Below, piece by piece: positions 4,935-25,853 of a DNA stretch of 64,000 bases. The position numbers were made by a program, and so were the translations under genes. The stretch's first letter is position 1. Each line of letters opens with the position of its first letter. A model generated the notes under the pieces. That model was not told the origin of the DNA. It worked only from the letters and a program-made list of their open reading frames with translations, and ran no database searches. This stretch comes from an uncultured delta proteobacterium. GTDB lineage: Bacteria > Desulfobacterota > DSM-4660 > Desulfatiglandales > HGW-15. The stretch is from positions 124,926 to 188,925 of the forward strand of contig CAVUFY010000011.1 in the NCBI GenBank assembly GCA_963740905.1. The letters run 5' to 3'.

Positions 4935-5747
4935 ATGGATGAATTTCGAGAAGAAAAGACCCAGTTTGTTGCCTCAATCCTTTCGGGTCCATCGATGAAT
5001 TCGAAGAAACCCTCCGTGACTTCGGATTCTTTCGGCGCAGTCTTATTCGATCTCGACGGGGTGCTGACCGCGACCGCCAAGGTACATGCTGCGTGCTGGA
5101 AGAAGACCTTTGACGACTACCTGAAGCAGCGCGAGGTGAAAACCAACGAGCCTTTTCGGCCCTTCGATCTGGACAAGGATTACAGCCTGTACGTGGACGG
5201 TAAGCCGCGTTACGACGGGGTCAAGAGCTTTCTCGAATCCCGGCGCATCCATCTCCCCTATGGAGATCCCCGCGACCCTCCGGACCGCGAAACCATCTGC
5301 GGCATCGGCAACCGCAAGGAAGAAATGGTCATCAAAATCCTTAAGACTGAAGGTGTAGAAGTATACGAAGGATCGGTGGCCTGGGTTCGTCATCTTCGCC
5401 AGGCAGGGATCAAGACTGCGGTGGTGTCATCGAGCAAGAACTGCCTCGCAGTGCTCAAAGCCGGTGGCATCGACGGATTGTTCGATGTGCGGGTGGACGG
5501 CCACGTGGTGGAAGATCAAAAACTTCCCGGCAAACCGGCGCCGGATACGTATCTTCACGCTGCCGCCTTGCTCAGCGTCACTCCCCGGCGGGCAGTAGTG
5601 GTGGAGGATGCCCTCGCAGGCGTTCAGGCGGGCCGGAATGGCGGTTTCGGTTTGGTGATCGGGGTCGATCGCAAAGGCCATGCCGATGCCCTCCGGGAAA
5701 ACGGGGCCGACGTGGTGGTGACCGATCTTGAGGAAATGCTTCCATGA
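4935..5747 (+). CDS. Beta-phosphoglucomutase-family HAD hydrolase
   Basis: It carries VLFDLDGVLTATAKVHAACWKKTF, a KPAPD motif and VVEDALAGVQAGRNGG. The start codon directly abuts the rpiA stop. It lies upstream of a GH65 phosphorylase, which is the classic pairing. Confidence 0.8.
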   Translation: MDEFREEKTQFVASILSGPSMNSKKPSVTSDSFGAVLFDLDGVLTATAKVHAACWKKTFDDYLKQREVKTNEPFRPFDLDKDYSLYVDGKPRYDGVKSFLESRRIHLPYGDPRDPPDRETICGIGNRKEEMVIKILKTEGVEVYEGSVAWVRHLRQAGIKTAVVSSSKNCLAVLKAGGIDGLFDVRVDGHVVEDQKLPGKPAPDTYLHAAALLSVTPRRAVVVEDALAGVQAGRNGGFGLVIGVDRKGHADALRENGADVVVTDLEEMLP

Positions 5748-5924
5748 TTCTTTGGAGCTGCACATCTGTATGAGGAAGGTGGTGGGCCGGGAAGGTTCAC
5801 GTTGGCGCCGCTATCGGGTCGTTTATTACGAAGTTATTCAGTTCGCCGAAGCAAGAGGAAATCTCTTCAAGGACGGGAGGAATGGCGTGGTAGTCACCGA
5901 CCCGTGCCGACTCATGGAGGCTGT

Positions 5925-8288
5925 ATGATCAAGCACTCAGCATTTCTCGTCGAGCCGTGGGCTCTCCACGAGACCGATCTGCGACTTGATCTCCTGGCTC
6001 AGAGCGAGTCACTTTTTGCCTTGTCCAATGGCCACATCGGTTTGCGTGGCAACCTCGATGAAGGGGAACCTCACGGGCTGCCGGGCACGTACCTGAATGG
6101 ATTCTACGAACTGCATCCTTTGCCCTACGCCGAGTCCCAGTACGGATCGCCGGAGTCTGGCCAGACACTCGTCAATGTAACGAACGGGAAACTGATACGC
6201 CTGCTCGTCGACGATGAGCCCTTTGACGTTCGCTACGGAGAGCTTCGGGTCCACGACCGGGTGCTCGATTTTCGCGCCGGGACATTGAGGCGAACGGCTG
6301 AATGGACCTCTCCAGCCAACCGTACCGTGCGCGTAACCTCGCTAAGATTCGTCTCACTTACGCATCGGGCGATCTTCGGCATCAGCTACGAGATCGAGCC
6401 GCTCGACGGACCTGCGAATATCGTCGTGCAATCTGAGCTCGTAGCCAACGAGCAGTTGCCGCTTCTGGGATCGGACCCGCGCGCCGCCAGCGCCATTGAA
6501 TCCCCTCTCCAATCCGAGGAGCACCTGTCACGGGACATGGGAGCAGTGCTGATCCATAGCACGAGGCGCAGCGGTCTGCGCATAGCGGCGGCTATGGATC
6601 ACTTCATCAGCGGCACCTCAAAAGCACATATCGACACGGAGTCGTCGCCCGATTCGGCTCGCGTCGTTGTCACCGATTCGCTCGAGCCGGGACATCGCCT
6701 TCGCCTGCTCAAGCTGGTTGCCTACGGATGGTCTCTCGAGCGCACGCTGCCGGCGCTGCGCGATCAGGTTGCCGCCGCCCTGGCGGCCGCGCGCCAGTCC
6801 GGATTCGAAGGCCTGCTCGCGGATCAAAGGCGATACCTCGATGATTTCTGGGCACACGCCGATGTCCAGCTCAGCGGTGATTCAGAGCTGCAGCAAGCGG
6901 TGCGTTTTGCGCTTTTCCACGTGCTCCAGGCCGGTGCGCGGGCCGAGAAGCGCGCCATTCCTGCCAAGGGGCTGACGGGGACAGGTTACAACGGCCACAC
7001 ATTCTGGGATATGGAGACGTTTGTCCTGCCCGTCCTGACTTACACCATGCCAAGTGCCGCCGCCGATGCGTTGCGCTGGCGCCATTCGACGATTTCAGCC
7101 GCCCGGCAGCGCGCGCGCGAGCTGGGTCTGGCCGGCGCCGCTTTTCCATGGCGCACCATTCATGGCGAGGAATGCTCGGGCTACTGGCCTGCGGGGATGG
7201 CTGCGTTTCATGTGAATGCCGATATTGCTGATGCCGTGATTCGGTATGTGGACGCAACCGGTGATGAGGCCTTCGAGCGTGACGTGGGCACCGACATTCT
7301 TGTGCAGACGGCGCGGCTCTGGCGCTCCCTGGGCCACCATGACCTTCAGGGCCGTTTTCGTATCGACGGCGTGACAGGACCTGACGAGTACAGCGCTATT
7401 TCCGACAACAATGTCTATACCAACCTGATGGCGGCGCGAAACCTGTCCGGTGCGGCGGATTTCTGCGAGCGAAATCAGGGTAAGGCACGCGATCTCGGCG
7501 TGACGCCCGAGGAAATGGCCGAATGGCGCGCCGCCGCCGATCGAATCTTCATCCCCTACGACCAGCGGCTGGGTGTACACCCGCAGGCTGAAGGCTTCAC
7601 CGACCACCAGATGTGGGACTTCTCCGAGGCGAGCCCTGACAAATATCCGCTTATGTTGCATTTCCCCTATTTCGATCTCTACCGCAAGCAGGTTGTCAAA
7701 CAACCGGACCTCGTGCTTGCCATGCAGCTCTGCGGTGATGCCTTTAGCGGCGAGCAAAAGGCGCGCAACTTCGACTATTACGAGCGAATCACCGTACGCG
7801 ACTCCTCCCTTTCTGCATGCACCCAGGCGGTGCTTGCAGCTGAGGTTGGGCACTTCCGTCTTGCGCTCGACTACACCGCCGAGGCCGCGCTCATGGACTT
7901 GCATGATCTGGAGCGCAATACACGCGATGGCCTGCACATTGCGTCGCTCGCAGGGACATGGAGAGCATTGGTAAATGGCTTTGGCGGGATGCGCGATCAC
8001 GCCGGAGTGCTTTCGTTTGCGCCCCGCCTGCCGGATGGCCTCGCGGCCATGTCCTTCTCTATCTTGCATCGCGGTTGTTGTATTCACGTAGAGGTGACCA
8101 CGAACGCGGCAAACTACCGTCTGACACAGGGGGCCGGGCCGCTACGAATACTGCATCACGGAGTGCAGTTGACACTGAACAACTCCACTCCTATCGAGCA
8201 GCCGATTCCGGCTATAGCCCCACGTGAGCCACCCCGGCAACCTCCCGGCCGGGAGCCTCAGCGTCGCTCGCCGGGGGGAGGCCCTTGA
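5925..8288 (+). CDS. Glycoside hydrolase family 65 phosphorylase (maltose/trehalose/kojibiose phosphorylase type)
   Basis: GGAGG lies 5 nt before ATG 5925. The N-terminus is MIKHSAFLVEPWALHETDLRLDLLAQSESLFALSNGHIGLRGNLDEGEP. It also carries GLTGTGYNGHTFWDMETF and the catalytic-region block ISDNNVYTN. There is an unusual Pro/Arg-rich 30-40 aa tail. Confidence 0.85.
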   Translation: MIKHSAFLVEPWALHETDLRLDLLAQSESLFALSNGHIGLRGNLDEGEPHGLPGTYLNGFYELHPLPYAESQYGSPESGQTLVNVTNGKLIRLLVDDEPFDVRYGELRVHDRVLDFRAGTLRRTAEWTSPANRTVRVTSLRFVSLTHRAIFGISYEIEPLDGPANIVVQSELVANEQLPLLGSDPRAASAIESPLQSEEHLSRDMGAVLIHSTRRSGLRIAAAMDHFISGTSKAHIDTESSPDSARVVVTDSLEPGHRLRLLKLVAYGWSLERTLPALRDQVAAALAAARQSGFEGLLADQRRYLDDFWAHADVQLSGDSELQQAVRFALFHVLQAGARAEKRAIPAKGLTGTGYNGHTFWDMETFVLPVLTYTMPSAAADALRWRHSTISAARQRARELGLAGAAFPWRTIHGEECSGYWPAGMAAFHVNADIADAVIRYVDATGDEAFERDVGTDILVQTARLWRSLGHHDLQGRFRIDGVTGPDEYSAISDNNVYTNLMAARNLSGAADFCERNQGKARDLGVTPEEMAEWRAAADRIFIPYDQRLGVHPQAEGFTDHQMWDFSEASPDKYPLMLHFPYFDLYRKQVVKQPDLVLAMQLCGDAFSGEQKARNFDYYERITVRDSSLSACTQAVLAAEVGHFRLALDYTAEAALMDLHDLERNTRDGLHIASLAGTWRALVNGFGGMRDHAGVLSFAPRLPDGLAAMSFSILHRGCCIHVEVTTNAANYRLTQGAGPLRILHHGVQLTLNNSTPIEQPIPAIAPREPPRQPPGREPQRRSPGGGP

Positions 8289-8492
8289 CGAAATTCTACT
8301 GCGGGTCCACCTTGTCGAGCCCGTCAATGGTCACGTCGATCTTTGCAGGAGATTCTCGCTGCTGCTGCGCTCGCAAGCACCGCGAAAAATACTGCCGTGA
8401 TCACGACATGATGGGAAAACGGAAAAATCGGTCATGACTCCCTCCTCAGCTTGGCGGCGGCCGGTGCGTCCACCAGCCAGTGCAGTTCCCCG

Positions 8493-8609
8493 GAGGGCCA
8501 GGGTAAAGCGGCCGCGCGCGGCTATGGCTTCGGCAGACAGCTCGATGATCAAATCCGCTGCACTGCTGATCAGGCCTTCTTGGTCCGAGTAAACGGTAAT
8601 CCTGGACGT
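8493..8609 (-). pseudogene. pgl: 6-phosphogluconolactonase (pgl) N-terminal fragment with the start codon apparently mutated (ACG)
   Basis: The minus strand reads GGAAGGAAAC-ACG-TCC...: (T)SRITVYSDQEGLISSAADLIIELSAEAIAARGRFTLAL, a typical Pgl N-terminus. The expected SGGSTP motif and the rest of the gene are absent. There is no ATG/GTG/TTG where the start should be. Confidence 0.45.
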
Positions 8610-8659
8610 GTTTCCTTCCCGGATAGGAGACTAGCGGGGTCCCGAAAAAGTCCTTGTTT

Positions 8660-8786
8660 GCAGGTTGCTCAAAAATGCCTAAGATGCAAGGCGTCCGAAA
8701 TCCTGAGGAGTGAGACGTACATATAAGTACGTCGCAACGACGAAGGATGAGGGCAACGCCGCAGATGGGCATTTTTCAGCAACCTG

Positions 8787-8787
<1 letters not shown>
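8660..8787 (-). repeat. Repeat family R2 (about 125-nt imperfect palindrome), copy a
   Basis: GCAGGTTGCTCAAAAATGCC...GACGTACATATAAGTACGTC...GGCATTTTTCAGCAACCTGC. Its reverse complement is about 80% identical by eye to 38231-38355. It abuts the pgi stop codon. Confidence 0.75.
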
Positions 8788-10428
<1,641 letters not shown>

Positions 10429-13896: not shown

Positions 13897-15219
13897 ATGA
13901 ACGGTCAAGAAAGTGGCATTATGTCCGAGGATCAACATCGAGACACGTCTGCATCCGCTTCAACGGGGCAAGCGGCAGGAGAACCACCTCTCTCGGCTAA
14001 CAGCAAGGACATCGCACCACACCCCCGCAAGCGTCGACGTCGCATGGTCGTCGGTGTCGTGCTGTTTCTTATAATCCTGATTGTTGGCTTGGCCTATTTC
14101 TTTCGCATGAGCAGTCCTTATCGAGAAACGGATGATGCCTATGTTCATGGAAATCAGATTTTCTTGACCTCGCGTGTCACGGGAACAGTCGTAGCCATCA
14201 ACGCCGATGCCACCGACCTCGTGCGAATAGGTCAGCCCCTGGTTCTTTTAGACGACAGCGACGCAAAGGTTCGGTCGCGCCAAGCTGAAGCTACTTTGGG
14301 AGACACGATGCGGAAGGTCTGTCAGTTCTATGTCAACGTCCGTCAGATGAAAGCGAATATTGCTGCAAGAAAAATCGACGTAGCCCGCACCGAAACCGAT
14401 TATCGACGGAGAACCTCTGTGGAGAAGGGTTCCGTTCCGGTAGAGGAAATCTCTCATGCGCGTGAGGGGGCGGATGCGGCCCGGGCTATGCTACAGGTTG
14501 CTAAACAACAACTGACCTCTGCACAGGCACTGGTCGTCAATACGGATTTGGAACATCATCCAATGGTCCTTCAGGCTGCTGCCAATGTTCTGGACGCGTA
14601 TTTGGCCTTGGAGCGAACGATTATCAATGCTCCCGCAACAGGATATGTTGCGCGCCGAAGTGTCCAGATCGGAGAGCGGGTCACACCTGGCGCGCCGTTG
14701 CTCACTATCATACCCTTAGATCAAATTTGGGTGGATGCAAACTTCAAGGAAGAACAACTCAAGGATGTGCGAATCGGCCAGCCCGTGAAGTTGCGCGCGG
14801 ACTTTTATGGTGACTCGGTTGAATACCGGGGTTACGTCGCCGGATTGAGTCCTGGCACCGGCGCTGCATTTGCGATATTACCACCTCAGGAGGCTTCCGG
14901 CAACTGGATCAAAATCGTGCAACGCGTGCCGATACGGATCCATTTGGACGAGAAACAGCTCAAAGAATTCCCCCTTCGCCTCGGCCTTTCCATGCAGGCT
15001 GTTATCGATACCACTAATCGCAGCGGTTCGGTTCTGGCCCAGGTTCCTCCCGAGAAGCCGGTCTATCTCACGAACATTTACTCAGACGAATGGGCAAAAG
15101 CAACTCAGTTGCTACAGGGCCTTTTAAAAACCAACTTGCAAGCATTGTCAAGCCTTGCTGGCCAGTGTTCGGCAAAAGAGGTTCAAGAGAATGCCAAGGG
15201 TAAGACGACCGATAAATGA
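13897..15219 (+). CDS. HlyD/EmrA-family membrane fusion (periplasmic adaptor) protein
   Basis: It has a single N-terminal TM helix (VVGVVLFLIILIVGLAYFF), then DDAYVHGN, a coiled-coil region, and the beta-barrel motifs INAPATGYVARRSVQIGERV. An alternative start is at 13921. Confidence 0.85.
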   Translation: MNGQESGIMSEDQHRDTSASASTGQAAGEPPLSANSKDIAPHPRKRRRRMVVGVVLFLIILIVGLAYFFRMSSPYRETDDAYVHGNQIFLTSRVTGTVVAINADATDLVRIGQPLVLLDDSDAKVRSRQAEATLGDTMRKVCQFYVNVRQMKANIAARKIDVARTETDYRRRTSVEKGSVPVEEISHAREGADAARAMLQVAKQQLTSAQALVVNTDLEHHPMVLQAAANVLDAYLALERTIINAPATGYVARRSVQIGERVTPGAPLLTIIPLDQIWVDANFKEEQLKDVRIGQPVKLRADFYGDSVEYRGYVAGLSPGTGAAFAILPPQEASGNWIKIVQRVPIRIHLDEKQLKEFPLRLGLSMQAVIDTTNRSGSVLAQVPPEKPVYLTNIYSDEWAKATQLLQGLLKTNLQALSSLAGQCSAKEVQENAKGKTTDK

Positions 15220-16822
15220 TGTCAGCATAGTCTCGGAGATGAAAGCACGGCGAACCTCGGGAGCCTTGCTTCTTGCCGAGTTCACAGGGGCAAAAGTCGG
15301 ATTGCTTGGCGCCTTGTGTTTATTGATTTTGCTCGACGGGGCCAATGGCGCCACGAGTTCGACGCTGGGTCCATATTTGATGGGGACCTTTGCAGCCACT
15401 CGTGATCAGATTGCTTGGACCGCTGTTTTCTACTTCGCAACAAAGCTTTATGCACTGCTGCTCGCGTCGCGCGTGCAGGAGCGATTCGGGCAACGAAGCT
15501 CATTGTTGGTAGCTTCCGCCGTCCTCGTCTTGGCCACCGGAGGCAGTGTTCTTGTGAGGGCATTCTTCTCGTTGCTTGTGGTGCGATTTTTTCAAGGCAT
15601 TTCAGGCGGATTGGTGCTAGCCCTCAGCCAAGGCGCGTTGTTGGGTGCGTTTCCACGACGAGAACAGCCATTGGTCCAAGGCGTCTTCGCGCTGGCTGCA
15701 GTCGTGTTTCCAGCAACCATCGTTCCTGCGTTTCTGGGTGGTTACGCCTATGGCTCGATTTGGCAATTTTCATACGTATGGATGACGTTCTGTGGGCTTG
15801 CAGGTTGGCTCTGGCTTTTCTGGAATAGAGAGTTGTTAGGAACCACTACATCAGCGGGCCCGGTACCGATCGGGAGAATTGCCATGTTGGGCAGCTCCCT
15901 TTTGGCGATCGCTTATGTATTGCAACAGGGTGATCGTTACGCATGGCTTGAGTCTCCTTATATCGTCTGGCCCGCATTGCTCGTCCTTGCTTGTTTGCTG
16001 GGACTAGGATTCATGGAATCAAGTGGAGGACCGACCTATTTGCGATATGCTTGCTTCCGGTTTGCTGATTTCACGTTTGGGGTATCCGTAAGTCTGCTTG
16101 CGGGAATGGCCCTCTTTGGCAGCGGGTTCGCTATTCCCAGCTTCACTGGTCGTGTTCTTCAATATCCCGTTTGGCACAGCGGACTCGTCCAACTCCACGC
16201 CGCATTGTATGCCACTCTCTCGCTCTTGGTGGTGGGCGCTGCATTGCGATTTACGAAGATACCATTATTCTTCTTTGTGTTTATCGGTCTGTTACTGTTT
16301 GGCACGGCGATGTGGAATCTTGGGAAAATGCCTTCAAACGCATCCTTTGGCAGTCTTATTCCCTGGTTGATTTTCCGTGGGCTTGCAGTGGGGTGCCTGT
16401 TTCTTCCACTCACTTTGCTCACACTAACCTGCGTGCCTGCAAAAGACAATGTGGCAGCTTCCGGGCTGTTCAATTTCGGCCGACAACTAGGTGCCCTAGT
16501 CGGCGTCGCCTGGATGGAAACTCTCCTGGACCATCTGACGGCCCGAAACCAGTCGGTGTTGGGCGAAGCGCTGTCGTGGTTGAATCCCCAAGTTGCGGTT
16601 TATGGGCAGACCGTACAGAACGCGCTTATGCTGAATGGAACACCAGCACCGCAGGTTTCAGGGACAGCTCTGGCGCTCATGGTTCAGGAAGCTCAGCGCC
16701 AGATGGCTAGCGTCGCGTTCAGTGGTTGCTTTCAGACTCTGGCCATGCTCTTTGTCTTCAGCCTGCCGTTGGTCGTGCTTGCACGTGTGCTGACCGCGCG
16801 TTTCCTTAAAGAGGCGTCATGA
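15155..16822 (+). CDS. MFS transporter, DHA2/EmrB-like (14-TM type)
   Basis: It is a multi-TM hydrophobic protein of about 530 aa, translationally linked to the EmrA-like gene and followed by an outer-membrane factor (OMF). The true start is uncertain; candidates are 15191 and 15239. Confidence 0.75.
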   Translation: MLASVRQKRFKRMPRVRRPINDVSIVSEMKARRTSGALLLAEFTGAKVGLLGALCLLILLDGANGATSSTLGPYLMGTFAATRDQIAWTAVFYFATKLYALLLASRVQERFGQRSSLLVASAVLVLATGGSVLVRAFFSLLVVRFFQGISGGLVLALSQGALLGAFPRREQPLVQGVFALAAVVFPATIVPAFLGGYAYGSIWQFSYVWMTFCGLAGWLWLFWNRELLGTTTSAGPVPIGRIAMLGSSLLAIAYVLQQGDRYAWLESPYIVWPALLVLACLLGLGFMESSGGPTYLRYACFRFADFTFGVSVSLLAGMALFGSGFAIPSFTGRVLQYPVWHSGLVQLHAALYATLSLLVVGAALRFTKIPLFFFVFIGLLLFGTAMWNLGKMPSNASFGSLIPWLIFRGLAVGCLFLPLTLLTLTCVPAKDNVAASGLFNFGRQLGALVGVAWMETLLDHLTARNQSVLGEALSWLNPQVAVYGQTVQNALMLNGTPAPQVSGTALALMVQEAQRQMASVAFSGCFQTLAMLFVFSLPLVVLARVLTARFLKEAS

Positions 16823-18294
16823 AAAGAACATGTTTCGGGAAGAAGAAGTCTGCTTTGGTCATCTTCCAAATGGCTATGCGCGCTATTTTGCTTCTTGGAT
16901 TGCTACCCGGTTGTACGGTCGGACCGGATTATCACCAACCGCACCTTCCCTCACCCTCTTCGTGGAGTTCTCCCATGGAAGGCGGTGAAACCAACGCTCA
17001 GCCCGTCGACGGCGCTTGGTGGAAAACCTTCCAAGACCCCAAACTGGATTCTCTCATTCTGCGCGCTGTTCAGTCGAATTTGGTTTTGCGCGTAGCCGAG
17101 GCGCGAATAAGAGAAGCCCGTGCGCAACGCGGTGTGGTCGCGTCGGGTGAAGGGCCTAGCATTGAAGTCCGAGGTTCGTATTCGCGAAATCGCTTCGGCA
17201 AAAACGGATTCCCTCCCCTGCCGCCGGGCGCGCCTCTGGATTACAATCTATACGCCGTGGGCTTCGATGCTTCGTGGGAACTTGACCTGTTCGGAGGCAT
17301 CCGCCGGGCCGTTGAGAGTGCTAACGCGGGAATTGCGGCGGCGGAATTTGGGTATGACGATGTGTTACGTTCCTTGTTGGGTGAGGTTGCTCGGAATTAT
17401 ATCGAGGCAAGAGCGTTTCAACGACGGCTGGCGATCACACACGAAAACATTCAGGCCCAACAGCGGATCGTCAATCTGACGCGCGACCGGTATCAAGCCG
17501 GGCTGACCTCCGAATTGGACGTGCAGCAGGCCGAGGCATTGCTGGCGACAACGACTTCGCAAGCCCCAACTTTCGAAACCGGTTTTCGGAACGCCACATA
17601 CCGGCTCGATGTTTTGTTGGGTCAGCCCACAGGGGATGTGTTGAATGACCTCTTGGAAGAGGTCCCCATTCCGGCCATACCGCCACAGGTTCCTGTTGGA
17701 TTACCTTCCGATTTGTTGCTTCGCAGACCGGACGTCCGACGCGCCGAGAGAGAGTTGGCCGCTGCAACCGCCCGGATAGGCGTAGCCAAAGCCGACTTGT
17801 TTCCCCGATTCTCGCTAACCGGTGACATTGGTCTAGTGAGCCTAAACGTCAGCGATTGGTGGAGCGCAGGGAGCCGGTTTTGGTCAGCGGGGCCGGTCGT
17901 GTCCTGGCCGGTTTTCCAGTCCGGCCGTATACGGGCAAATGTGCTCGTGCAAGAGACCCGAGAAGAGCAGGCGCTCGCTCAATATCAACAAAGTGTTCTG
18001 ATTGCTTTTGAGGATGTAGATTCAGCCCTGACGGCTTACGCCAAGGAACAAATCCGCCGCCGATCGCTTGTGCAATCAGTCCAAGCCAATAAAAGGGCGC
18101 TGAAACTGGCTGACGATTTGTATCGTCATGGGCTCACCGATTTCATTCGCGTGTTGGAGTCTCAACGCGGACTCTACCAGGCTGAGGATTCATTGGTCCA
18201 GAGCGATCAATTCGTGGCCTTGAATCTGGTGGCTCTTTATAAAGCCCTGGGAGGCGGATGGGGAGTGGATGAGGCGGGCGGATTGGCTCAATAG
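16819..18294 (+). CDS. Efflux outer-membrane factor lipoprotein, NodT family
   Basis: The lipobox is LLPGC followed by TVGPDY. It carries DLFGGIRR and the two OEP repeats. Its start overlaps the stop of the MFS gene. Confidence 0.85.
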   Translation: MKRTCFGKKKSALVIFQMAMRAILLLGLLPGCTVGPDYHQPHLPSPSSWSSPMEGGETNAQPVDGAWWKTFQDPKLDSLILRAVQSNLVLRVAEARIREARAQRGVVASGEGPSIEVRGSYSRNRFGKNGFPPLPPGAPLDYNLYAVGFDASWELDLFGGIRRAVESANAGIAAAEFGYDDVLRSLLGEVARNYIEARAFQRRLAITHENIQAQQRIVNLTRDRYQAGLTSELDVQQAEALLATTTSQAPTFETGFRNATYRLDVLLGQPTGDVLNDLLEEVPIPAIPPQVPVGLPSDLLLRRPDVRRAERELAAATARIGVAKADLFPRFSLTGDIGLVSLNVSDWWSAGSRFWSAGPVVSWPVFQSGRIRANVLVQETREEQALAQYQQSVLIAFEDVDSALTAYAKEQIRRRSLVQSVQANKRALKLADDLYRHGLTDFIRVLESQRGLYQAEDSLVQSDQFVALNLVALYKALGGGWGVDEAGGLAQ

Positions 18295-18551
18295 CCGTTT
18301 CCTTCAAACGAGCCCCACATCAAGGGTAGTTTGCTATTGACATGAAATACATCCTCTTGCAGCCAGATATAAAGTATTGATCGTATTTACCTTTCGGATA
18401 ACGCCGGGCAAGAATTCTTTCTCCGAGAATAGCGATAAGATGTTCTCAGAATGGGCTTTTTCCGCCGGTCAAGAGAAAACCATGCGTCACACTGCGAAAG
18501 GAATTATTGCAGCCTTCCTGGAATGGGTGGCTGTTTTGAAGAGACCGACTG

Positions 18552-19853
18552 ATGCGAAAAGAGAATAACAAGCGCATCTCCGAAACACTCCAGAAAGATA
18601 TGGAAAAGAAGGTGGAGTATCTGAAAAGACTGATGGAAATGTCTGCCCTATTATCATCGACACTCGAACTTGACGACTTAATATCCCTCGTCACCGAAAG
18701 AGCGAAGAGTCACCTGAAGGCTGAGGGATGTTCCATCCTGTTTTACAACAAAGAGACCAACAGGCTTGAGTTTAAGGGGGCAATTTGCGAAAACGGGAAG
18801 GGTTCCGGGATCCAGCAGAAGGAAGGCACTCTCGAAATCGGACAGGGCATCGCGGGCTCGGTCGCTGAGACCCTTCAGCCGGTTTTCATAGAAGACGTGC
18901 AGACTGACAGCAAGTTTCATCAGGAAGCCGACAGGTTTTCGGGATTTCCGATAAGAAGTCTCATGGCTATGCCGCTTGTAGGCAGAAGCGGTCTCATCGG
19001 CGTCGTGGAGATACTCAATCCCAGGAAGGAGGATTATGACCCGGAGATCGCTCAGCTTCTCGCCAGGCAATTTGCGACAGCGATAGAGAGTTCGCTTTTC
19101 CATAGGGAGGCTCTCGAGAGGGAGCGGCTCAAGCAGGAACTTGATATAGCGTCCACTCTTCAGAAGAGTTTTCTCCCGGAATCATCTACCTTTAGAACAG
19201 GTGACCTGTCGGTCAGCGCCGTGACCCTGTCCGCCGAAAAGGTCGGAGGCGACCTGTATGATTTCATTGAACGAGACGGGAACAGGGTCGGGATACTGAT
19301 AGGAGATGTCTCCGGGAAGGGGATATCCGCAGCCCTGTATATGGCAAAATTCAGCAGCGATTTCAAGTACGTATCCCGTCTTGCTGATTCACCGTCCCTC
19401 GCGCTTAACCGGTTGAACCTCTCTCTCCTCAAGTCACCGCGAGGAATGTTCCTAACATGTATTTACCTTTTGGTCGATATCGCGACCGGTGCTGCTCAAC
19501 TCTCCGTTGCCGGCCATCCGCCCTTCCTGTGGATAACGAAAGGACAGATGAAGGTCATGTCTGTTCCGGGGGGGCCGCCCCTCGGAATTATTCCCAGCGA
19601 ATATCCCGCAACGACGATATCACTCGAAAAAGGTGATAGGCTAGTCCTCCTTACAGACGGCGTCTTCGAGGCGAGGGACAAGGGCGGGCAGAGGCTCGGC
19701 TTTGAAAACCTTGTCAGCTTCATAGACTCACACCGAAAAGAGGAAGATCTCGTCAATAGAATGATTCATTATGTTGATGATTTCTCGAAAGGTGCCGAAA
19801 GGGCAGACGACCTCACAATCGTAGAACTCAAATGGGGGGTGAGCTCAGATTAA
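18552..19853 (+). CDS. GAF domain-containing PP2C/SpoIIE-type serine phosphatase (RsbU/RsbP-like)
   Basis: The N-terminal GAF domain carries GIAGSVAETLQPVFIEDV and LMAMPL. The C-terminal PPM domain carries GGDLYDF, IGDVSGKGISAALYMA, LLTDGVFEA, DDLTIVEL. Confidence 0.85.
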   Translation: MRKENNKRISETLQKDMEKKVEYLKRLMEMSALLSSTLELDDLISLVTERAKSHLKAEGCSILFYNKETNRLEFKGAICENGKGSGIQQKEGTLEIGQGIAGSVAETLQPVFIEDVQTDSKFHQEADRFSGFPIRSLMAMPLVGRSGLIGVVEILNPRKEDYDPEIAQLLARQFATAIESSLFHREALERERLKQELDIASTLQKSFLPESSTFRTGDLSVSAVTLSAEKVGGDLYDFIERDGNRVGILIGDVSGKGISAALYMAKFSSDFKYVSRLADSPSLALNRLNLSLLKSPRGMFLTCIYLLVDIATGAAQLSVAGHPPFLWITKGQMKVMSVPGGPPLGIIPSEYPATTISLEKGDRLVLLTDGVFEARDKGGQRLGFENLVSFIDSHRKEEDLVNRMIHYVDDFSKGAERADDLTIVELKWGVSSD

Positions 19854-19857
19854 AGAT

Positions 19858-20286
19858 GTGGTTAAAATCACGGTCCCTTCTCATCCGAAATATCTGGCTC
19901 TGGTGAGGGCGGTAACGGTCGGAATGGGGGCCCGAAATAACGTTGACGATACGGTAATCAAGCATATGGAACATGCCGTTGACGAGGCATGTTCAAATGT
20001 CATCAAGCACGCTTACGCAGGAAACCCGAACAAAAAGATTGGGATAACACTCAGGGTCTCACAGGCGGCCTTCGAAGTGATTATCGAGGACAGCGGGGTC
20101 AAGGCCGACGTCCCCTCTGTCAGGGGAAGGAATCTCGATGATCTAAGACCGGGAGGACTCGGAGTTCATTTAATCAAAAGGGCTTGTGACATCGTCGAGT
20201 TCGATGAACAAAAGAAGAAGGGTAACCGGCTCAGGCTCGTCAAGTATCTCCAGGAGAACCATGGAAATAGAAATCAGGGACCATGA
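19858..20286 (+). CDS. Anti-sigma-factor-type serine protein kinase (RsbW/SpoIIAB-like, HATPase_c)
   Basis: GTG start, 4 nt after the phosphatase stop. The N-box is EACSNVIKHAY, G1 is IEDSGV, G2 is GGLGVHLIKR. Confidence 0.8.
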   Translation: MVKITVPSHPKYLALVRAVTVGMGARNNVDDTVIKHMEHAVDEACSNVIKHAYAGNPNKKIGITLRVSQAAFEVIIEDSGVKADVPSVRGRNLDDLRPGGLGVHLIKRACDIVEFDEQKKKGNRLRLVKYLQENHGNRNQGP

Positions 20287-20590
20287 CGGTGCAAAGATCA
20301 TTGCAGTCTCCGGCGATATCGATATGTATACGTCCCCTGAGTTGAGAAAACAGTTGCTCCTCCTGAGTGATCAAAAGCTTCCAGTGATCATCATTGACCT
20401 TGAGAACGTCACTTATATCGACAGTTCGGGGATCGCGACTTTTGTCGAAGCATTGAAACATATGAGATCATACAGCGGTCGATTGAAATTCTTCGGCATA
20501 CCTATGAGAATAAAGCAGATATTCACCTTTTCAAAACTGGACAAGGTTTTCGAAATGTACGGGGGTATCGAAGATGCCCTCAAAAGCTGA
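20261..20590 (+). CDS. STAS-domain anti-sigma-factor antagonist (RsbV/SpoIIAA-like), a possible MlaB analogue
   Basis: MEIEIRDHDGAKIIAVSGDIDMYTSPELRKQL...VTYIDSSGIATFVEAL carries the phosphorylatable DSSG motif. The gene overlaps the kinase gene by 26 nt and mlaE by 17 nt. Confidence 0.85.
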   Translation: MEIEIRDHDGAKIIAVSGDIDMYTSPELRKQLLLLSDQKLPVIIIDLENVTYIDSSGIATFVEALKHMRSYSGRLKFFGIPMRIKQIFTFSKLDKVFEMYGGIEDALKS

Positions 20591-21380
20591 GACTCTCCTC
20601 GGTTTTATCGGCAGGAGGGCAATGCACTTCGGGGAGGATATCCACGGCTTCTCGAAGCTCATCAATGATACGATTCACTGGACGATCATTTCCGTCCTTA
20701 AGCACCAGCGAATGCAATTCAGGGCAGACATATCCGAAATGGTCAAGGCTGGATATAATGCCGTGCCGATCGTAGCGGTGATTTCTCTTTTCATCGGGAT
20801 TATCCTTGCTCTCCAGGCGGCATACCAGCTCAGGAGGGTTGGGGCGTTGATCTACGTGGCAAACCTTGTCGGGGTTTCGATGACGAGGGAACTCGGTCCT
20901 ATACTGACGGCGATCATCGTAGCCGGACGTAGCGGGTCGGCATTTTCCGCTGAGATCGGGGCGATGAAGGTGGAAGAAGAAGTGGATGCGCTTGTCACGA
21001 TGGGGATCAGTCCTGTGAAGTTCCTCGTCGTGCCGAAGCTGGTTGCAATGATGATCATGGTCCCAGCCCTCACTCTCTTTTCGGACTTGGTCGGGATCTT
21101 TGGCGGTTTTCTTTTTTCCGCAACTGCGCTTGACATGCCTCCTTACATCTATTTTCAGCAAACCCAGAACTCACTGCTGATTAAGGATATTCTCACGGGG
21201 CTTATAAAGGCATGGGCTTTCGGCACCGCAATAACACTCATAGGCGTCAACGAAGGATTCAAGGTGCAGGGGAGCGCGGTGGAAGTAGGGAGAAACACCA
21301 CCGCAGCCGTCGTGAATTCGATTTTTGTCGTCATCATGTTTGACCTCCTGTTTACGGCCTTTTTTTACTATTTTACGTGA
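20574..21380 (+). CDS. mlaE: MlaE-family ABC transporter permease
   Basis: VGVSMTRELGPILTAIIVAGRSGSAFSAEIGAMKVEEEVDALVTMGISP is the hallmark MlaE/Ttg2B block. Confidence 0.85.
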   Translation: MPSKAETLLGFIGRRAMHFGEDIHGFSKLINDTIHWTIISVLKHQRMQFRADISEMVKAGYNAVPIVAVISLFIGIILALQAAYQLRRVGALIYVANLVGVSMTRELGPILTAIIVAGRSGSAFSAEIGAMKVEEEVDALVTMGISPVKFLVVPKLVAMMIMVPALTLFSDLVGIFGGFLFSATALDMPPYIYFQQTQNSLLIKDILTGLIKAWAFGTAITLIGVNEGFKVQGSAVEVGRNTTAAVVNSIFVVIMFDLLFTAFFYYFT

Positions 21381-21434
21381 AGTCTCGTCGGAATTGCCCA
21401 AGGGCAAATATTTGTAAAATGGAGTGCGGGGGAA

Positions 21435-22217
21435 ATGGAAGCAGCCATAGAAGTGATGGGACTGCATTCTCGATACGGAGACGTGGAGATTCTAAGGAAC
21501 GTCACGGTTTCGATGCCGAAGGGGAAGATCACAGCAATAGTCGGTAAGAGTGGGTCGGGGAAAAGTACGCTCCTGAAGCATCTCATAGGGCTCTTAAAGC
21601 CGATCAAGGGAAAGATTTTGATCAACCGGCAAGATATTGCTTCTCTTGGAGGAGAGGACCTGGACAAAGTAAGAAAGAAAATGGGGGTACTGTTTCAAGG
21701 GGCCGCGCTGCTGCACTCCCTGAGTGTTTCCGACAACATCGCTCTCCCCATCAGGGAGCATACCAGGCTCAATGAATCGACGATCCATATCATGGTGCAT
21801 ATGAAACTCGACCTTGTGGGACTTTCAGGCTTCGAAGACTTTTTCCCCGCCCAGCTTTCCGGCGGCATGAAGAAAAGGGCGGGCCTTGCGCGTGCCTTGG
21901 CTCTGGATCCGGAAATCCTCTTTTTCGACGAACCTTCTTCCGGGCTCGACCCTATCACGGCCGCGGGGCTCGACAAACTCATTCTCAAACTCAGGGACAC
22001 ATTCGGAGTGACGATCGTCGTTGTTACCCATGAGCTTCCAAGCTTGTTCATGATTTCCGATCACGTCATCATGCTCGACCGCGGTGAGGCGATTTTCTCG
22101 GGTCCGCTCGATGATATGAAACAGGCCGAGGATCAGAGAATCAGTATGTTTCTCGACAGAAGACCTGAAGAGGAGACGCCATCCGACGATTATTTAAGGG
22201 TCCTTGCGGAAGGCTGA
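21435..22217 (+). CDS. mlaF: MlaF-type ABC transporter ATP-binding protein
   Basis: Walker A is GKSGSGKST, the signature is LSGGMKKR, Walker B is ILFFDEPSSGLD. Confidence 0.9.
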   Translation: MEAAIEVMGLHSRYGDVEILRNVTVSMPKGKITAIVGKSGSGKSTLLKHLIGLLKPIKGKILINRQDIASLGGEDLDKVRKKMGVLFQGAALLHSLSVSDNIALPIREHTRLNESTIHIMVHMKLDLVGLSGFEDFFPAQLSGGMKKRAGLARALALDPEILFFDEPSSGLDPITAAGLDKLILKLRDTFGVTIVVVTHELPSLFMISDHVIMLDRGEAIFSGPLDDMKQAEDQRISMFLDRRPEEETPSDDYLRVLAEG

Positions 22218-22218
22218 T

Positions 22219-23136
22219 ATGCAAGGGAAAAAGGAATACTTGAGTGAGGAGATCAAGGCGGGCGGAATCATTTTCGCGTCTTTCGTGATTCTTGGCGCCT
22301 TTATAATCTTGATTGGGGGTAGCCGCTTTTTCGAGAAATTTGATGCCTACTACATCAAGGTCATGAACGCGGCGGGTCTCACGAAAGGGGCCCAGGTCAG
22401 TCTGGGCGGGATAAGGGTGGGAAGAGTCTTGGATATCAAGGAACCGGGGGGACCGGGAAAGCCCCTGACAGTAGAGATAGCCGTTACGAAAGGGACCATT
22501 CTCTATAAAGGGACAAAAGCACTGATCACTCAAACCGGATTTGTCGGTGACACCTATCTCCTTCTTACCGTCGATCACACGACCGCCGGCAGGATCGGGG
22601 TGGGAGAAGAAATCCCGTCAGAGGAAAGGACAGATCTCAGCATGATCATGACAAGGGTGTACAAACTATCTGAATCCGTTGGTCTTCTGACCCAGGATGC
22701 CGATAGGTTTTTCAGCAAAGAAAATGCACGCGAAGTCGATAATTTGCTGAGCAATACGAGCGAGGCGATTGTTTCAATTTCTTCAAATCTGGATCAAGTC
22801 GCATCATCGCTGAGAGCGACCACGGCCAAGCTCGACAATGTCCTCAGCGAACTCCAAGAGATTGTGAAAGCAAATAAAGTCGAGGTGTCGAGACTAATAC
22901 GCAATGCGAGGAAAGATATCGATAAGGCCGGAGATATGATCGCGCGAATAGAGGCGGCGGCTAATAAAGTTGATAACGTGTCGGATTCCACGGGCCGGGC
23001 AATTGAGGACCTATCTCCGAACCTGGAAAACCTTATATTCGAAATGACTAAGACGACGGACGACCTGCGAGATGCCATTCAAGAGATCAGGAGAAGGCCC
23101 TGGAGCATCCTCTACAAAGAAAGAGATGGAAAATGA
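22219..23136 (+). CDS. mlaD: MlaD/MCE-domain substrate-binding protein
   Basis: It has an N-terminal TM helix (GIIFASFVILGAFIILIGG), an MCE beta-barrel (GLTKGAQVSLGGIRVGRV) and a long C-terminal helical region. Confidence 0.8.
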   Translation: MQGKKEYLSEEIKAGGIIFASFVILGAFIILIGGSRFFEKFDAYYIKVMNAAGLTKGAQVSLGGIRVGRVLDIKEPGGPGKPLTVEIAVTKGTILYKGTKALITQTGFVGDTYLLLTVDHTTAGRIGVGEEIPSEERTDLSMIMTRVYKLSESVGLLTQDADRFFSKENAREVDNLLSNTSEAIVSISSNLDQVASSLRATTAKLDNVLSELQEIVKANKVEVSRLIRNARKDIDKAGDMIARIEAAANKVDNVSDSTGRAIEDLSPNLENLIFEMTKTTDDLRDAIQEIRRRPWSILYKERDGK

Positions 23137-23137
23137 G

Positions 23138-23713
23138 ATGAAATCTTTTGCCGCGTTCGTCTTTTCACTCGTTTTCTTATTATCATGCGCCATGTCTGAA
23201 ACGAAGATTTACACCCTTTCTCTCCCTCCCATAAAGGAGCAGCCTAATGTTGAACCGCATGCATCAGTCAACGTAATCGTCCACGCACCGCGCTATCTTG
23301 AACAACCCTATATTGCTTACAGGATTTCTCCTTATGAGGTCGAACTGTCGAAGGATTCGAGGTGGGATTCGTCTCCGGCCGATATGATGAAGCGAGCGAT
23401 TAAAGAGTCACTTTGTTCTTCACGTTTCTTCGCAGTAGTCAGGACTTCGGCGTTTGCACCGCCTGGGTTCTATGATTGCGAGGTCAATCTCCGGAGGTTC
23501 GAGCGATTCGATAAAGGGAATGAGTCCTTTGGGGAACTCGATTTTGAAATCACCTTCCGTTCTCCTGGAGGCAGGGTGCTTTACAACGGATCACTGAAGA
23601 AGGAGTTGAAACTTGCTGACAGGAGCTATTCAAGCCTTGCAAAGTTCTTGAGTGAAGCGCTTTCTCAAGGATTGGATGAAGCAAGTGCCGCTATCGTAAA
23701 ATCCATTCCTTAA
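23138..23713 (+). CDS. ABC-type transport auxiliary lipoprotein (ABC_trans_aux/DUF330-like)
   Basis: The lipobox is FLLSC. IYTLSLPP, APRYLEQPYIAYRISPYEVELSKDSRWDSSPADMMKRAIKESL matches the family pattern from memory. An alternative start is at 23126. Confidence 0.65.
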   Translation: MKSFAAFVFSLVFLLSCAMSETKIYTLSLPPIKEQPNVEPHASVNVIVHAPRYLEQPYIAYRISPYEVELSKDSRWDSSPADMMKRAIKESLCSSRFFAVVRTSAFAPPGFYDCEVNLRRFERFDKGNESFGELDFEITFRSPGGRVLYNGSLKKELKLADRSYSSLAKFLSEALSQGLDEASAAIVKSIP

Positions 23714-23824
23714 AATGCTGAGTTTGTGGTCATGAAGAAAGCTCCATCCAGTGCACCTTATGAACCCTAGTCCTCAGGGCCAGGTCAGAGACAATGGCTG
23801 AGCCTGTGCTAGTGAGAAGGCTCT

Positions 23825-23990
23825 AAATTCGAAGCACGAAATTAGAACTCCGAAACAATACACAATGACAAAACCGGCAATGATCCAAACAAAATCGTGT
23901 TTGATGCCCCGAATCTAATTTTGTTTTTGTCATTAGAACATTTGGTATTCGAATTTGTTTCGTATTTCGAACTTCGGATTTCGGATTTTG
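23825..23990. repeat. Repeat family R4: AT-rich imperfect palindrome built from CGAAAT/TTCGAA-type short motifs
   Basis: AAATTCGAAGCACGAAATTAGAACTCCGAAACAATACACAATGACAAAA...TTTTGTCATTAGAACATTTGGTATTCGAATTTGTTTCGTATTTCGAACTTCGGATTTCGGATTTT. This is the only copy in the window. Confidence 0.6.
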
Positions 23991-24061
23991 CCGGCGCTAC
24001 ACTTGCAATCATGCTCTCTGGGCTTAGACCACAGCCGGGAGCTCTGGACCCGGATCTTTAC

Positions 24062-24790
24062 TCACCAGCGGCCGAAATGGGCGCCGCCATCGACATACAG
24101 GATGTGACCAGTGACCGTCGCGGCGTCGGTCAGGTACATGACCGCATCCGCGATGTCCTTGACCGTCGAAGGCCGACCCATCGGCGACAGGCTCTCCATC
24201 ACGTCCTTCGGAGTGTCCCGGTGAAGCGGCGTGTCGACGACGCCCGGCGCGACGGCGTTCACGCGGATGCCGTCTTTCGCGTACTCCATCGCAAGGTGCT
24301 GGGTGATCGTTTCAAGACCGCCTTTGGTGATCATCGGCACCGACGCCGTGACGCCCCGGATCGGGTTGCGAGCCAGGGCCGCCGTGATCGTGACGATGCT
24401 CCCGCCGGTCTTCTGCGCCAACATCTGCTTGATGGAGAGCTGGGTGACGTACAGGAAGCCCTCGAGGTTCGTCGAGACGAGCGACTTGAAGTCCTCGGCC
24501 GTGTAGTCCGTGAACGGCTTGGTGAAGAAGATGCCGGCGTTGTTGACCAGCACGTCGATCGACTTGAAGCGAGACAGCGCCGTCTCGACGATCCTGGCGG
24601 CCGTTGCCGGCTCGCCGATGTGGCCGTCCACCAGAGCGACATGGTCGGAAGCCGCGACCTCGGTGGATTGGGTCACCTTCCGGGAATTGGCAACGACGTT
24701 GAAACCCCGTTCGACAAACCCTTTCACGATTCCCGCGCCGATCCCCTGCGAAGCTCCGGTCACGATGGCTGTCTTCCGTGGGCCGCTCAT
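24062..24790 (-). CDS. Short-chain dehydrogenase/reductase (SDR) family oxidoreductase
   Basis: It carries TGASQGIGAGI (the TGxxxGxG motif), NNAG, and a catalytic-region Y/K. The codon usage is clearly GC-rich. Confidence 0.9.
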   Translation of the reverse strand: MSGPRKTAIVTGASQGIGAGIVKGFVERGFNVVANSRKVTQSTEVAASDHVALVDGHIGEPATAARIVETALSRFKSIDVLVNNAGIFFTKPFTDYTAEDFKSLVSTNLEGFLYVTQLSIKQMLAQKTGGSIVTITAALARNPIRGVTASVPMITKGGLETITQHLAMEYAKDGIRVNAVAPGVVDTPLHRDTPKDVMESLSPMGRPSTVKDIADAVMYLTDAATVTGHILYVDGGAHFGRW

Positions 24791-24845
24791 GGTTGTTTAC
24801 CTCGAAAACGTCTGTGTCACTAGAAAAATTCGATGGTCAAGCGGA

Positions 24846-25853
24846 TCAGAAATCCGCGTCCAGCACGATGCGGTAACGGGCCTTGCCTGATTCAAGTCGG
24901 GCGAAGGCCTCGTTGATCTTGCTCATCGGGAAGTGCTCGGTCTGCGGCGCGATATTGTGCCGTGAAGCAAAGTCGAGCATCGTCTCGATCGCCACCGGCG
25001 AGCCGGTCGGCGAACCTGAGACGCTACGCTGCTGCATGATGAGCGAGAACGCCGCGACCGGGATCGGTTCCAGCACGGCGCCGACGACATGCAGCCGGCC
25101 GTTCGGCGCGAGCGTGCCGATCATCGCGTCCCAATCGAGCTTCACGTTGACGGTGCTGATCAGGAGGTCGAAGCTGCCGCCGAGTTTCTTGATCGCCGCC
25201 GAGTCTTTGCTCGAAACGACGTGGTTCGCCCCGAAACCCTTCGCTTCATCGAACTTGCTCTCGCTCGACGTGAACGCCGTCACGTCGCAGCCGTACGCGG
25301 CGGCGAACTTCACGGCCATGTGCCCCAGCCCGCCGATGCCGATGATGCCCACCCGATCGGTCGGCTTGGCGTACATGGCCAGCGGCGCGAAGACGGTGAT
25401 GCCCCCGCACAGGAGCGGCCCGGCTTCGGCGAAGTTCAGCTTTTCCGGCAGCGGGATGGCCCAAGCCCAGTGCGAGCGGATGTGGGTCGCGAACCCGCCG
25501 CGATGACCGACGATGGTCGGCTGCACTTGCGGGCAAAGGTGATGGCTTCCCGACATGCACTGGCGGCAGTGCATGCAGCTACCCGAGTTCCAGCCGACGC
25601 CGACGCGCTGTCCGACCTTGAGTCCCTTGGCATTCGGACCCACGGCCGTGACCCGGCCGATGACCTCGTGGCCGAGAATCGCGGGGTACTGCGAAATGCC
25701 CCACTCATTGTTCAAGACGGAGAGATCGGAGTGACACAAACCGCAGTGTTCGACAGCGACTTCAACGTCCTCGGCCCCGAGCGGTCCGAGATCAACGGTT
25801 TCGAGCACCATCGGCTGTTTCGCCGCCTTCGCAACCCATGCCTTATAATTCAT
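24846..25853 (-). CDS. Zinc-dependent NAD(P)-alcohol dehydrogenase (YahK/AdhA-like MDR)
   Basis: It carries GLCHSDLSV, GHEVIGRV, the structural-zinc Cys cluster CMHCRQCMSGSHHLC and the GIIGIGGLGH Rossmann motif. Confidence 0.9.
   Translation of the reverse strand: MNYKAWVAKAAKQPMVLETVDLGPLGAEDVEVAVEHCGLCHSDLSVLNNEWGISQYPAILGHEVIGRVTAVGPNAKGLKVGQRVGVGWNSGSCMHCRQCMSGSHHLCPQVQPTIVGHRGGFATHIRSHWAWAIPLPEKLNFAEAGPLLCGGITVFAPLAMYAKPTDRVGIIGIGGLGHMAVKFAAAYGCDVTAFTSSESKFDEAKGFGANHVVSSKDSAAIKKLGGSFDLLISTVNVKLDWDAMIGTLAPNGRLHVVGAVLEPIPVAAFSLIMQQRSVSGSPTGSPVAIETMLDFASRHNIAPQTEHFPMSKINEAFARLESGKARYRIVLDADF

Follow-up and report, generated by a model that had tools for sequence, protein, structure and literature searches.

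What does a complete partner-switching module regulate when its genes lie inside a lipid-transport operon with no sigma factor beside them? The question is raised by a locus at positions 18552-23713 of a 64-kb (64,000 nt) stretch of DNA from an uncultured delta proteobacterium, the whole of which is called the window below. Seven open reading frames (ORFs), all on the plus strand, encode in order a GAF-PP2C phosphatase, a kinase, a STAS protein, MlaE, MlaF, an MCE protein and a lipoprotein. An earlier note on this DNA had read the STAS protein as a phospho-controlled MlaB analogue in an Mla operon. We lean, with little more than even confidence, towards a related answer: that a complete partner-switching module has been recruited to control an MCE-type envelope lipid ATP-binding cassette (ABC) transporter post-translationally, instead of a sigma factor. 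Protein families were assigned with Pfam and NCBIfam models.

ORF coordinates and Pfam domain calls confirmed the seven co-directional genes, and the close spacing that had been claimed for the first four was recovered when the junctions were read from the sequence. The TAA stop of the PP2C gene (19851-53) and the start codon of the kinase gene at 19858 leave a 4-nt gap; this start codon is GTG, a correction to the earlier note. The STAS gene begins with ATG 20261 behind an AGGAGA ribosome-binding site and overlaps the kinase gene, which stops at 20284-86, by 26 nt. The mlaE gene in turn begins at ATG 20574 and overlaps the STAS gene, with its stop at 20588-90, by 17 nt. Further downstream, a 65-nt overlap between the genes for the MCE protein (MlaD) and the lipoprotein is probably an ORF-calling artefact that comes from taking the first ATG. 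The true lipoprotein start is likely ATG 23138, giving MKSFAAFVFSLVFLLSC with the conserved lipobox Cys and a 1-nt spacer, and the MlaD start may be ATG 22219. A promoter and terminator scan of 18000-24200 returned counts at or below the shuffled expectation, with nothing in the 257-nt spacer upstream of the PP2C gene, and an Rfam scan of 18200-24100 gave no match. A perfect hairpin, TTGCCCAAGGGCAA, is present at 21394-21407 inside the 54-nt mlaE-mlaF spacer; it is not a conserved feature, because this spacer measures 0-4 nt in most relatives.

The first two genes encode the enzymes of a phospho-switch. The product of 18552..19853 is a GAF-PP2C phosphatase (SpoIIE-family PPM) of 433 amino acids (aa) that matches Pfam GAF at 5e-16 and SpoIIE at 2.9e-45. 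Its metal-binding motifs GGDxYD, GDVSGKG and TDG are conserved across 77 orthologues, and from its sequence it is predicted to be both the sensor, or input, of the module and the phosphatase for the phosphorylated STAS protein (STAS-P). The GAF sensor is presumably cytoplasmic, since Pfam detected no transmembrane domain. The kinase (19858..20286, 142 aa) is of the RsbW/SpoIIAB-type GHKL serine kinase family, with HATPase_c_2 (PF13581) at 7e-25. Its best NCBIfam match is RsbW, at 78.7 bits under an equivalog cut-off of 145. Across 81 orthologues it keeps the N box (DEACSN), G1 (D.G) and G2 (PGGLG), and all 120 matches listed in a homologue search aimed at distant relatives with other wiring belong to the same family at identities of at least 53%.

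The third gene (20261..20590) encodes a single-domain STAS protein of the SpoIIAA/RsbV type, 109 aa long (Pfam STAS, 8e-21). It passes the ant_ant_sig model with 75.6 bits against a cut-off of 53, while both it and the kinase score below the SpoIIAA and RsbW equivalog cut-offs of NCBIfam. The canonical phosphorylatable-type DSSG motif that had been reported for this protein was verified at residues 54-57. Its first serine, Ser55 (codon 20423..20425), is the predicted phospho-acceptor and caps the N terminus of helix alpha2. Ser55 is invariant in an alignment of 25 sequences and at least 98% conserved in 82, and YIDSSGIATFVE is invariant in this particular family. An AlphaFold2 model of the protein (predicted local distance difference test score, pLDDT, 93) has the full SpoIIAA topology, including alpha4, with helix alpha2 starting at residue 55. 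The top Foldseek matches of the model were RsbV and SpoIIAA, each in complex with its partner (RsbW and SpoIIAB, respectively), with query TM-scores (TMq) of 0.85-0.89, and the best PDB matches by sequence were TM1442, RsbV and SpoIIAA (1e-13 to 1e-10).

The remaining four genes specify a transporter. MlaE, the permease (20574..21380, 268 aa), matches PF02405 at 5e-77 and TIGR00056 at 239 bits, above the cut-off of 212. The ATPase (21435..22217, 260 aa; ABC_tran) has MlaF as its best NCBIfam match, with a score of 231 bits that falls below the equivalog cut-off of 441. It is 44% identical to E. coli MlaF, carries the Mla/TGD-specific signature LSGGM, and has P. aeruginosa MlaF, E. coli MlaF and M. 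smegmatis MceG as its best PDB matches. The third component is a long MlaD-like protein (22204..23136, 310 aa) with a single MCE domain at residues 49-121 (MlaD/MCE PF02470, 1e-10), followed by a helical or coiled-coil part of about 190 aa. It scored 58 bits with TIGR00996 (Mtu_fam_mce) and 37 bits with TIGR04430 (MlaD, cut-off 135), both below the cut-offs; one orthologue (locus L098) gave a faint 'Helical_needle' match. The last gene (23072..23713 as called) encodes an ABC_trans_aux (PqiC/YmbA-like) lipoprotein (PF03886, 1.5e-14) with a signal peptide and an LLSC lipobox whose Cys is conserved. The description of the locus as an Mla operon is imprecise: the MlaE permease and MlaF ATPase are present, and the long MlaD, the PqiC-like lipoprotein and the missing MlaC set the locus apart from an E. 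coli-type Mla system. The transporter belongs to the long-MlaD class of MCE systems and includes a PqiC-like outer-membrane lipoprotein.

Is the combination peculiar to this genome? One genome per species was scanned, and 179 genomes proved to have a relative. The best 80, nearly all from the class Thermodesulfovibrionia together with four metagenome-assembled genomes (MAGs) labelled Deltaproteobacteria or Thermodesulfobacteriota, were analysed by tblastn with the seven window proteins. Counting genes in the same order and on the same strand, in loci whose contig leaves room for them, the kinase is kept in 79/79 loci and the PP2C gene upstream of it in 74/75. On the other side of the STAS gene, MlaE is kept in 77/78, MlaF in 71/77, MlaD in 59/71 and the lipoprotein in 58/70. 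The STAS family consists of 109-aa proteins that are 59-96% identical among the 120 matches listed, mostly from Nitrospirota. Six independent contigs with differing flanks share the gene order. When flanking ORFs were clustered, the commonest cluster occurred in 11 of 77 loci, so that apart from the lipoprotein, where it had not been called, the block has no other conserved neighbour. The junctions are conserved as well: of 76 distinct loci, 60 have the exact 17-nt overlap between STAS and mlaE and 68 have an overlap of some length there, and the kinase gene runs into the STAS gene in 63 of 79 loci. These conserved overlaps suggest translational coupling of the STAS protein to the transporter.

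A fortuitous adjacency or an assembly artefact, devoid of functional meaning, might be suspected from the G+C step just downstream of the block and from the metagenome-type source of the sequence. The arrangement is far beyond chance, however, given that about 80 species genomes repeat this gene order between differing flanks. Order and overlaps are shared by about 90 independent assemblies, which stem from different studies and represent different phyla, and chance adjacency, which we regard as extremely improbable, was rejected on the synteny counts. Conservation of the gene order across relatives, which had been proposed as a check, was accordingly found in these species genomes and also in a sister clade. 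One MAG contains, besides its locus L011, a second and degraded copy of the module (L012, 6000-9300): its PP2C gene is split into several ORFs, its kinase and STAS genes are intact, and an alpha/beta hydrolase stands where MlaE is expected.

The sister STAS clade (36-48% identity) was reached through a profile search of 1.84 billion representatives, in which the next-closest STAS clusters carry a related motif, YMDSSG[IV]ATLVEGLQ. Its hosts are candidate division KSB1 (Candidatus Zhuqueibacterota, FCB group), a 'Bacteroidetes' MAG and unclassified MAGs. Genes for GAF-SpoIIE, HATPase_c_2, STAS and MlaE occur in that order in all seven contexts examined; the ATPase and an MCE protein are also present in six of them and the lipoprotein in four, with only MlaE following STAS in L093. 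Compared with their window counterparts, the five cytoplasmic and membrane proteins are 36-54% identical, the MCE protein and lipoprotein about 20-25%. Persistence of the block across phyla and through rearrangements is the classic signature of a functional unit. Among the rearrangements, the KSB1-type locus L094 has two TPM_phosphatase-domain genes inserted between PP2C and kinase (4561-6373) and two small ORFs between MlaE and the ATPase (8339-9188), with module and transporter still together. Several KSB1-type loci are also flanked, up- or downstream, by a gene for a sigma-54-dependent response regulator (Response_reg, Sigma54_activat and HTH_8 domains; L095 4365-4992, L097 10647-11996, L098 9610-10959, L099 2639-4003), which may control transcription of the operon in this clade.

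Sigma factors, the usual partners of such a module, were searched for with phmmer, using E. coli RpoS, FliA and RpoE against all ORFs of at least 70 aa; the survey of related genomes covered ±8 kb around each locus. The 64-kb window and the first 88 related loci yielded no sigma-70-family ORF, as the earlier note had maintained for the locus itself. The three queries cross-detected one another at 1e-8 to 1e-14, which served as the control. Pfam annotation of the neighbouring genes on the six contigs and in the sister-clade loci likewise gave no sigma-70 domain. The window contains no second STAS protein, kinase or PP2C phosphatase, and no MlaB or MlaC (MlaA was not searched for), so the further claim that separate mlaB and mlaC genes are missing was also borne out.

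How might the module act on the transporter? In E. coli, MlaB uses alpha1-alpha3 to contact the helical subdomain of MlaF; Thr52 of MlaB is central in the interface, and the T52E variant binds less strongly (Kolich et al. 2020, PMC7367683). Without MlaB, MlaF is not retained on MlaE, and Tyr261, Leu265 and Leu266 in a C-terminal extension of MlaF pack between MlaB and the neighbouring MlaF (PMC7367683). The window MlaF has such an extension (residues 239-260, FLDRRPEEETPSDDYLRVLAEG; 22149..22214), in which Tyr253 and Leu257 match Tyr261 and Leu265 of the E. coli counterpart, FLDGIADGPVPFRYPAGDYHADLLPGS. The C-terminal consensus FLERRPExExYSPEDYF[RK]IIAGD is found in 72 orthologues, and the Y-x3-L core is retained in the KSB1-type clade too; the last 50 residues of MlaF alone gave no meaningful match against the PDB. 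On the STAS side, an hhalign comparison with E. coli MlaB was weak (probability 42%) and placed YIDSSGIA over RVDTGGLA, pairing Ser55 with Thr52.

From these correspondences we propose a switch in which reversible phosphorylation of Ser55 would decide whether the STAS protein docks on MlaF, thereby gating the lipid ABC transporter with a GAF ligand as the signal; we give this specific mechanism an even chance. Unphosphorylated STAS protein would dock on the helical subdomain of MlaF via the helical face that alpha1-alpha3 form around Ser55, in the position that MlaB occupies in E. coli MlaFEDB, and docking would stabilise or activate the MlaF2E2 motor. The RsbW-type kinase would compete for the same face of the STAS protein and phosphorylate Ser55, expelling the STAS protein from MlaF and turning the transporter off. 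The cytoplasmic GAF-PP2C phosphatase, responding to an intracellular ligand, would then dephosphorylate STAS-P and turn the transporter on again. Observed are the genes with their junctions, the intact catalytic motifs of kinase and phosphatase, the invariant Ser55, the synteny across phyla, the lack of a linked sigma factor and the E. coli-like MlaF extension. We infer that STAS binds MlaF, and likewise whether phosphorylation switches the transporter off or on, what kind of ligand the GAF domain recognises, and which lipid is carried in which direction.

Several results, given in this and the next two paragraphs, weigh against the proposed switch. The STAS protein scored 23.1 bits with the mlaB_1 model (NF033618), whose cut-off is 90; E. 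coli MlaB ranked only 39th among the Foldseek matches of its model (TMq 0.65). In the PDB sequence search, A. baumannii MlaB chains were reached at E values of 0.25-0.3 and E. coli MlaB was not found at E <= 10. Orthology with MlaB was rejected on these family scores and this fold ranking: the protein is of the anti-sigma-antagonist (RsbV/SpoIIAA) type in MlaB's genomic niche, and is not a member of the MlaB family. Nor does it show visible descent from the STAS domains that are fused to MlaE-type permeases, since a profile search of 1.84 billion representatives returned single, tandem or multi-STAS proteins, and no STAS-MlaE fusion, among its best 150 relatives. The MlaF extension, moreover, is not specific to MlaB-containing systems, because V. 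parvula MlaF has one without MlaB (PMC10665443). The phospho-controlled MlaB analogue is partly supported, by synteny, the absence of a linked sigma factor, the conserved STAS-mlaE overlap, the Ser55/Thr52 correspondence, the MlaF extension and the mirror-tree values reported below.

The block is also shortened in magnetotactic Nitrospirota (Ca. Magnetobacterium, Ca. Magnetominusculus and relatives). It ends after MlaE in L024, L025, L053, L077 and L085, and after MlaF in at least six loci (L051, L067, L068, L073, L079, L083); in the loci examined, what comes next is unrelated, for example genes for a BatD-like protein, a DUF5684 protein, a thioredoxin-like protein and an FGE-sulfatase. MlaF is thus not always linked, since in five of these loci the block stops before it, and the invariant core is PP2C-kinase-STAS-MlaE. 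Such loci, in which MlaF, MlaD and the lipoprotein are not adjacent, would also fit an ordinary anti-sigma (or other regulatory) switch with its target elsewhere, the module being merely co-transcribed with the transporter in one envelope or stress regulon. By sequence and fold the module proteins are typical of the RsbU/V/W type, a sigma factor unlinked to the locus could lie beyond the ±8 kb surveyed in each genome, and the sigma-54-dependent response-regulator gene of L095, L097, L098 and L099 adjoins the block. Against such a distant target stand the lack of any sigma-70-family gene in the window and the first 88 related loci, the absence of another conserved neighbour that might be the target, and the linkage to MlaE, which survives phyla, insertions and changes of flank with the STAS-mlaE overlap conserved. 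We consider a target elsewhere decidedly unlikely.

If the module does act on the transporter, which of its proteins makes the contact? The canonical wiring would simply put the transporter in the place of the sigma factor: the kinase would bind and inhibit MlaF or MlaE, and the STAS protein would only sequester the kinase, never touching the transporter. This arrangement has in its favour that the STAS protein and kinase are closest to RsbV/RsbW and SpoIIAA/SpoIIAB, in which the kinase holds the output protein, and the synteny fits it equally well. A mirror-tree comparison was made on pairwise distance matrices from the 55 loci with all six larger proteins, as partial correlations controlled for the mean divergence of the other proteins. 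The known contacts MlaE-MlaD and MlaE-MlaF gave partial r of 0.45 and 0.38. STAS-MlaF reached a value comparable to these, 0.35 (Mantel p = 0.001, bootstrap 0.18-0.50); STAS-PP2C gave 0.32, PP2C-kinase 0.31, STAS-kinase 0.16, STAS-MlaD -0.01 and STAS-MlaE -0.04. Kinase-MlaF was 0.04, against the 0.35 of STAS-MlaF. The pattern is the one that the MlaB-analogue model predicts and mildly argues against the kinase as the MlaF binder. Residual correlations of 0.32 for kinase-MlaD and 0.23 for kinase-MlaE, pairs for which no contact is expected, point the other way; they may be noise of the method, or the kinase may also contact the membrane complex. Because these two values lack an expected basis, correlations of about 0.3 are suggestive only and not proof. 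Three further observations speak for the STAS protein rather than the kinase: MlaB, itself a STAS protein, is the sole cytoplasmic accessory of MlaF known from experiment (PMC7367683), the gene that overlaps mlaE is that for STAS, and the known fusions are STAS-MlaE. The kinase as effector therefore seems to us unlikely, and docking of the STAS protein on MlaF is the arrangement we carry forward.

Directly upstream of the operon and on the same strand, 13897-18294 encodes an EmrAB-TolC-like tripartite efflux pump, consisting of an HlyD-type membrane-fusion protein, an MFS permease and an OEP outer-membrane factor; it is separated from the PP2C gene by the 257-nt spacer and is not a conserved neighbour in the related loci. 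Downstream, an AT-rich spacer with several short inverted repeats (23714-24061) lies at a step in G+C content, from about 0.48-0.50 in the operon to 0.62 beyond it, and is followed by genes for an SDR protein and a Zn-alcohol dehydrogenase on the minus strand (24062-25853). The step near 23714-25853 may be a boundary of horizontal transfer or rearrangement.

Regulation of MCE/Mla transporters is an acknowledged gap. Phosphoregulation of MlaB was explicitly left open by Kolich et al. (2020), with no kinase known (PMC7367683), and the present operon family, conserved in about 180 species from at least two phyla, makes the question tractable by supplying a STAS protein in MlaB's position with its own kinase and sensor-phosphatase, in a seven-protein system that can be reconstituted for testing phospho-gating of an ABC transporter. 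If the proposal is true, this would be the first ABC transporter under a dedicated partner-switching cascade and natural evidence that MlaB-type subunits are regulatory switches. It would also be a new class of output for partner switching, moved from RNA polymerase to a membrane machine and to a post-translational time scale, through which a cytoplasmic signal, the GAF ligand, tunes envelope lipid traffic. In a full-text search of the literature we found no paper joining RsbW/RsbV/PP2C or partner switching with Mla or MCE, and a review of STAS-only proteins mentions neither Mla nor ABC transporters. Partner switching with non-sigma outputs and STAS subunits of Mla transporters are each known; their combination, a whole phospho-module devoted to a lipid ABC transporter, is as far as we can tell undescribed.

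Comparison with known systems brings out what is shared and what is particular to this operon. It resembles E. coli MlaFEDB (Thong 2016, PMC5016091; PMC7367683) in its MlaE/MlaF core, the LSGGM signature, the Tyr/Leu 'handshake' extension of MlaF and a small single-domain STAS protein in the operon, whose alpha2 N-cap is Ser55 where MlaB has Thr52. It differs in that the STAS protein is of the RsbV/SpoIIAA family and encoded immediately upstream of mlaE, whereas mlaB is last in its operon, and in the dedicated kinase and phosphatase, which E. coli lacks. Its MlaD has 310 aa compared with 183 in E. coli; it also has a PqiC-like lipoprotein and no MlaC in the window, MlaA not having been searched for. 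The long-MlaD and Pqi-type MCE systems (PMC10665443; E. coli PqiABC) likewise have a long helical region behind a single MCE domain, lack MlaC and include an ABC_trans_aux (PqiC-like) lipoprotein; the long-MlaD architecture has been argued to occur widely and perhaps to span the envelope (Grasekamp et al. 2023, PMC10665443). The STAS/kinase/phosphatase module is reported for none of them. STAS domains fused N-terminally to MlaE-family (DUF140) permeases have been described (Casali and Riley 2007, PMC1810536). There, as here, STAS stands immediately N-terminal to or upstream of MlaE, which implies that the STAS protein is a transporter subunit; in the present operon each has its own gene, the two overlapping by a conserved 17 nt, and kinase or phosphatase partners are undescribed for the fusions.

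On the side of the switch, the closest counterparts are the SpoIIE-SpoIIAA-SpoIIAB and RsbU/P-RsbV-RsbW modules of Bacillus. They share with the present module a SpoIIE-type PP2C phosphatase with an N-terminal sensor domain, a DSSG/DSTG STAS protein and a HATPase_c_2 kinase; unlike them, this module lies inside an ABC-transporter operon, and no sigma gene accompanies it there, elsewhere in the window or at the first 88 related loci. Partner-switching-like systems with non-sigma outputs include Bordetella BtrUVW and P. aeruginosa HsbR-HsbA. SypE-SypA of V. fischeri and the HenR/STAS-glycosyltransferase module of Anabaena belong with them (PMC10120452, PMC13555669). In these systems, as in the one proposed here, a phosphorylatable STAS protein acts on something other than transcription, envelope and polysaccharide machinery being among the targets. 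None of them is known to act on an ABC transporter or on lipid transport of the MCE type, the output to which the operon described here would be devoted.

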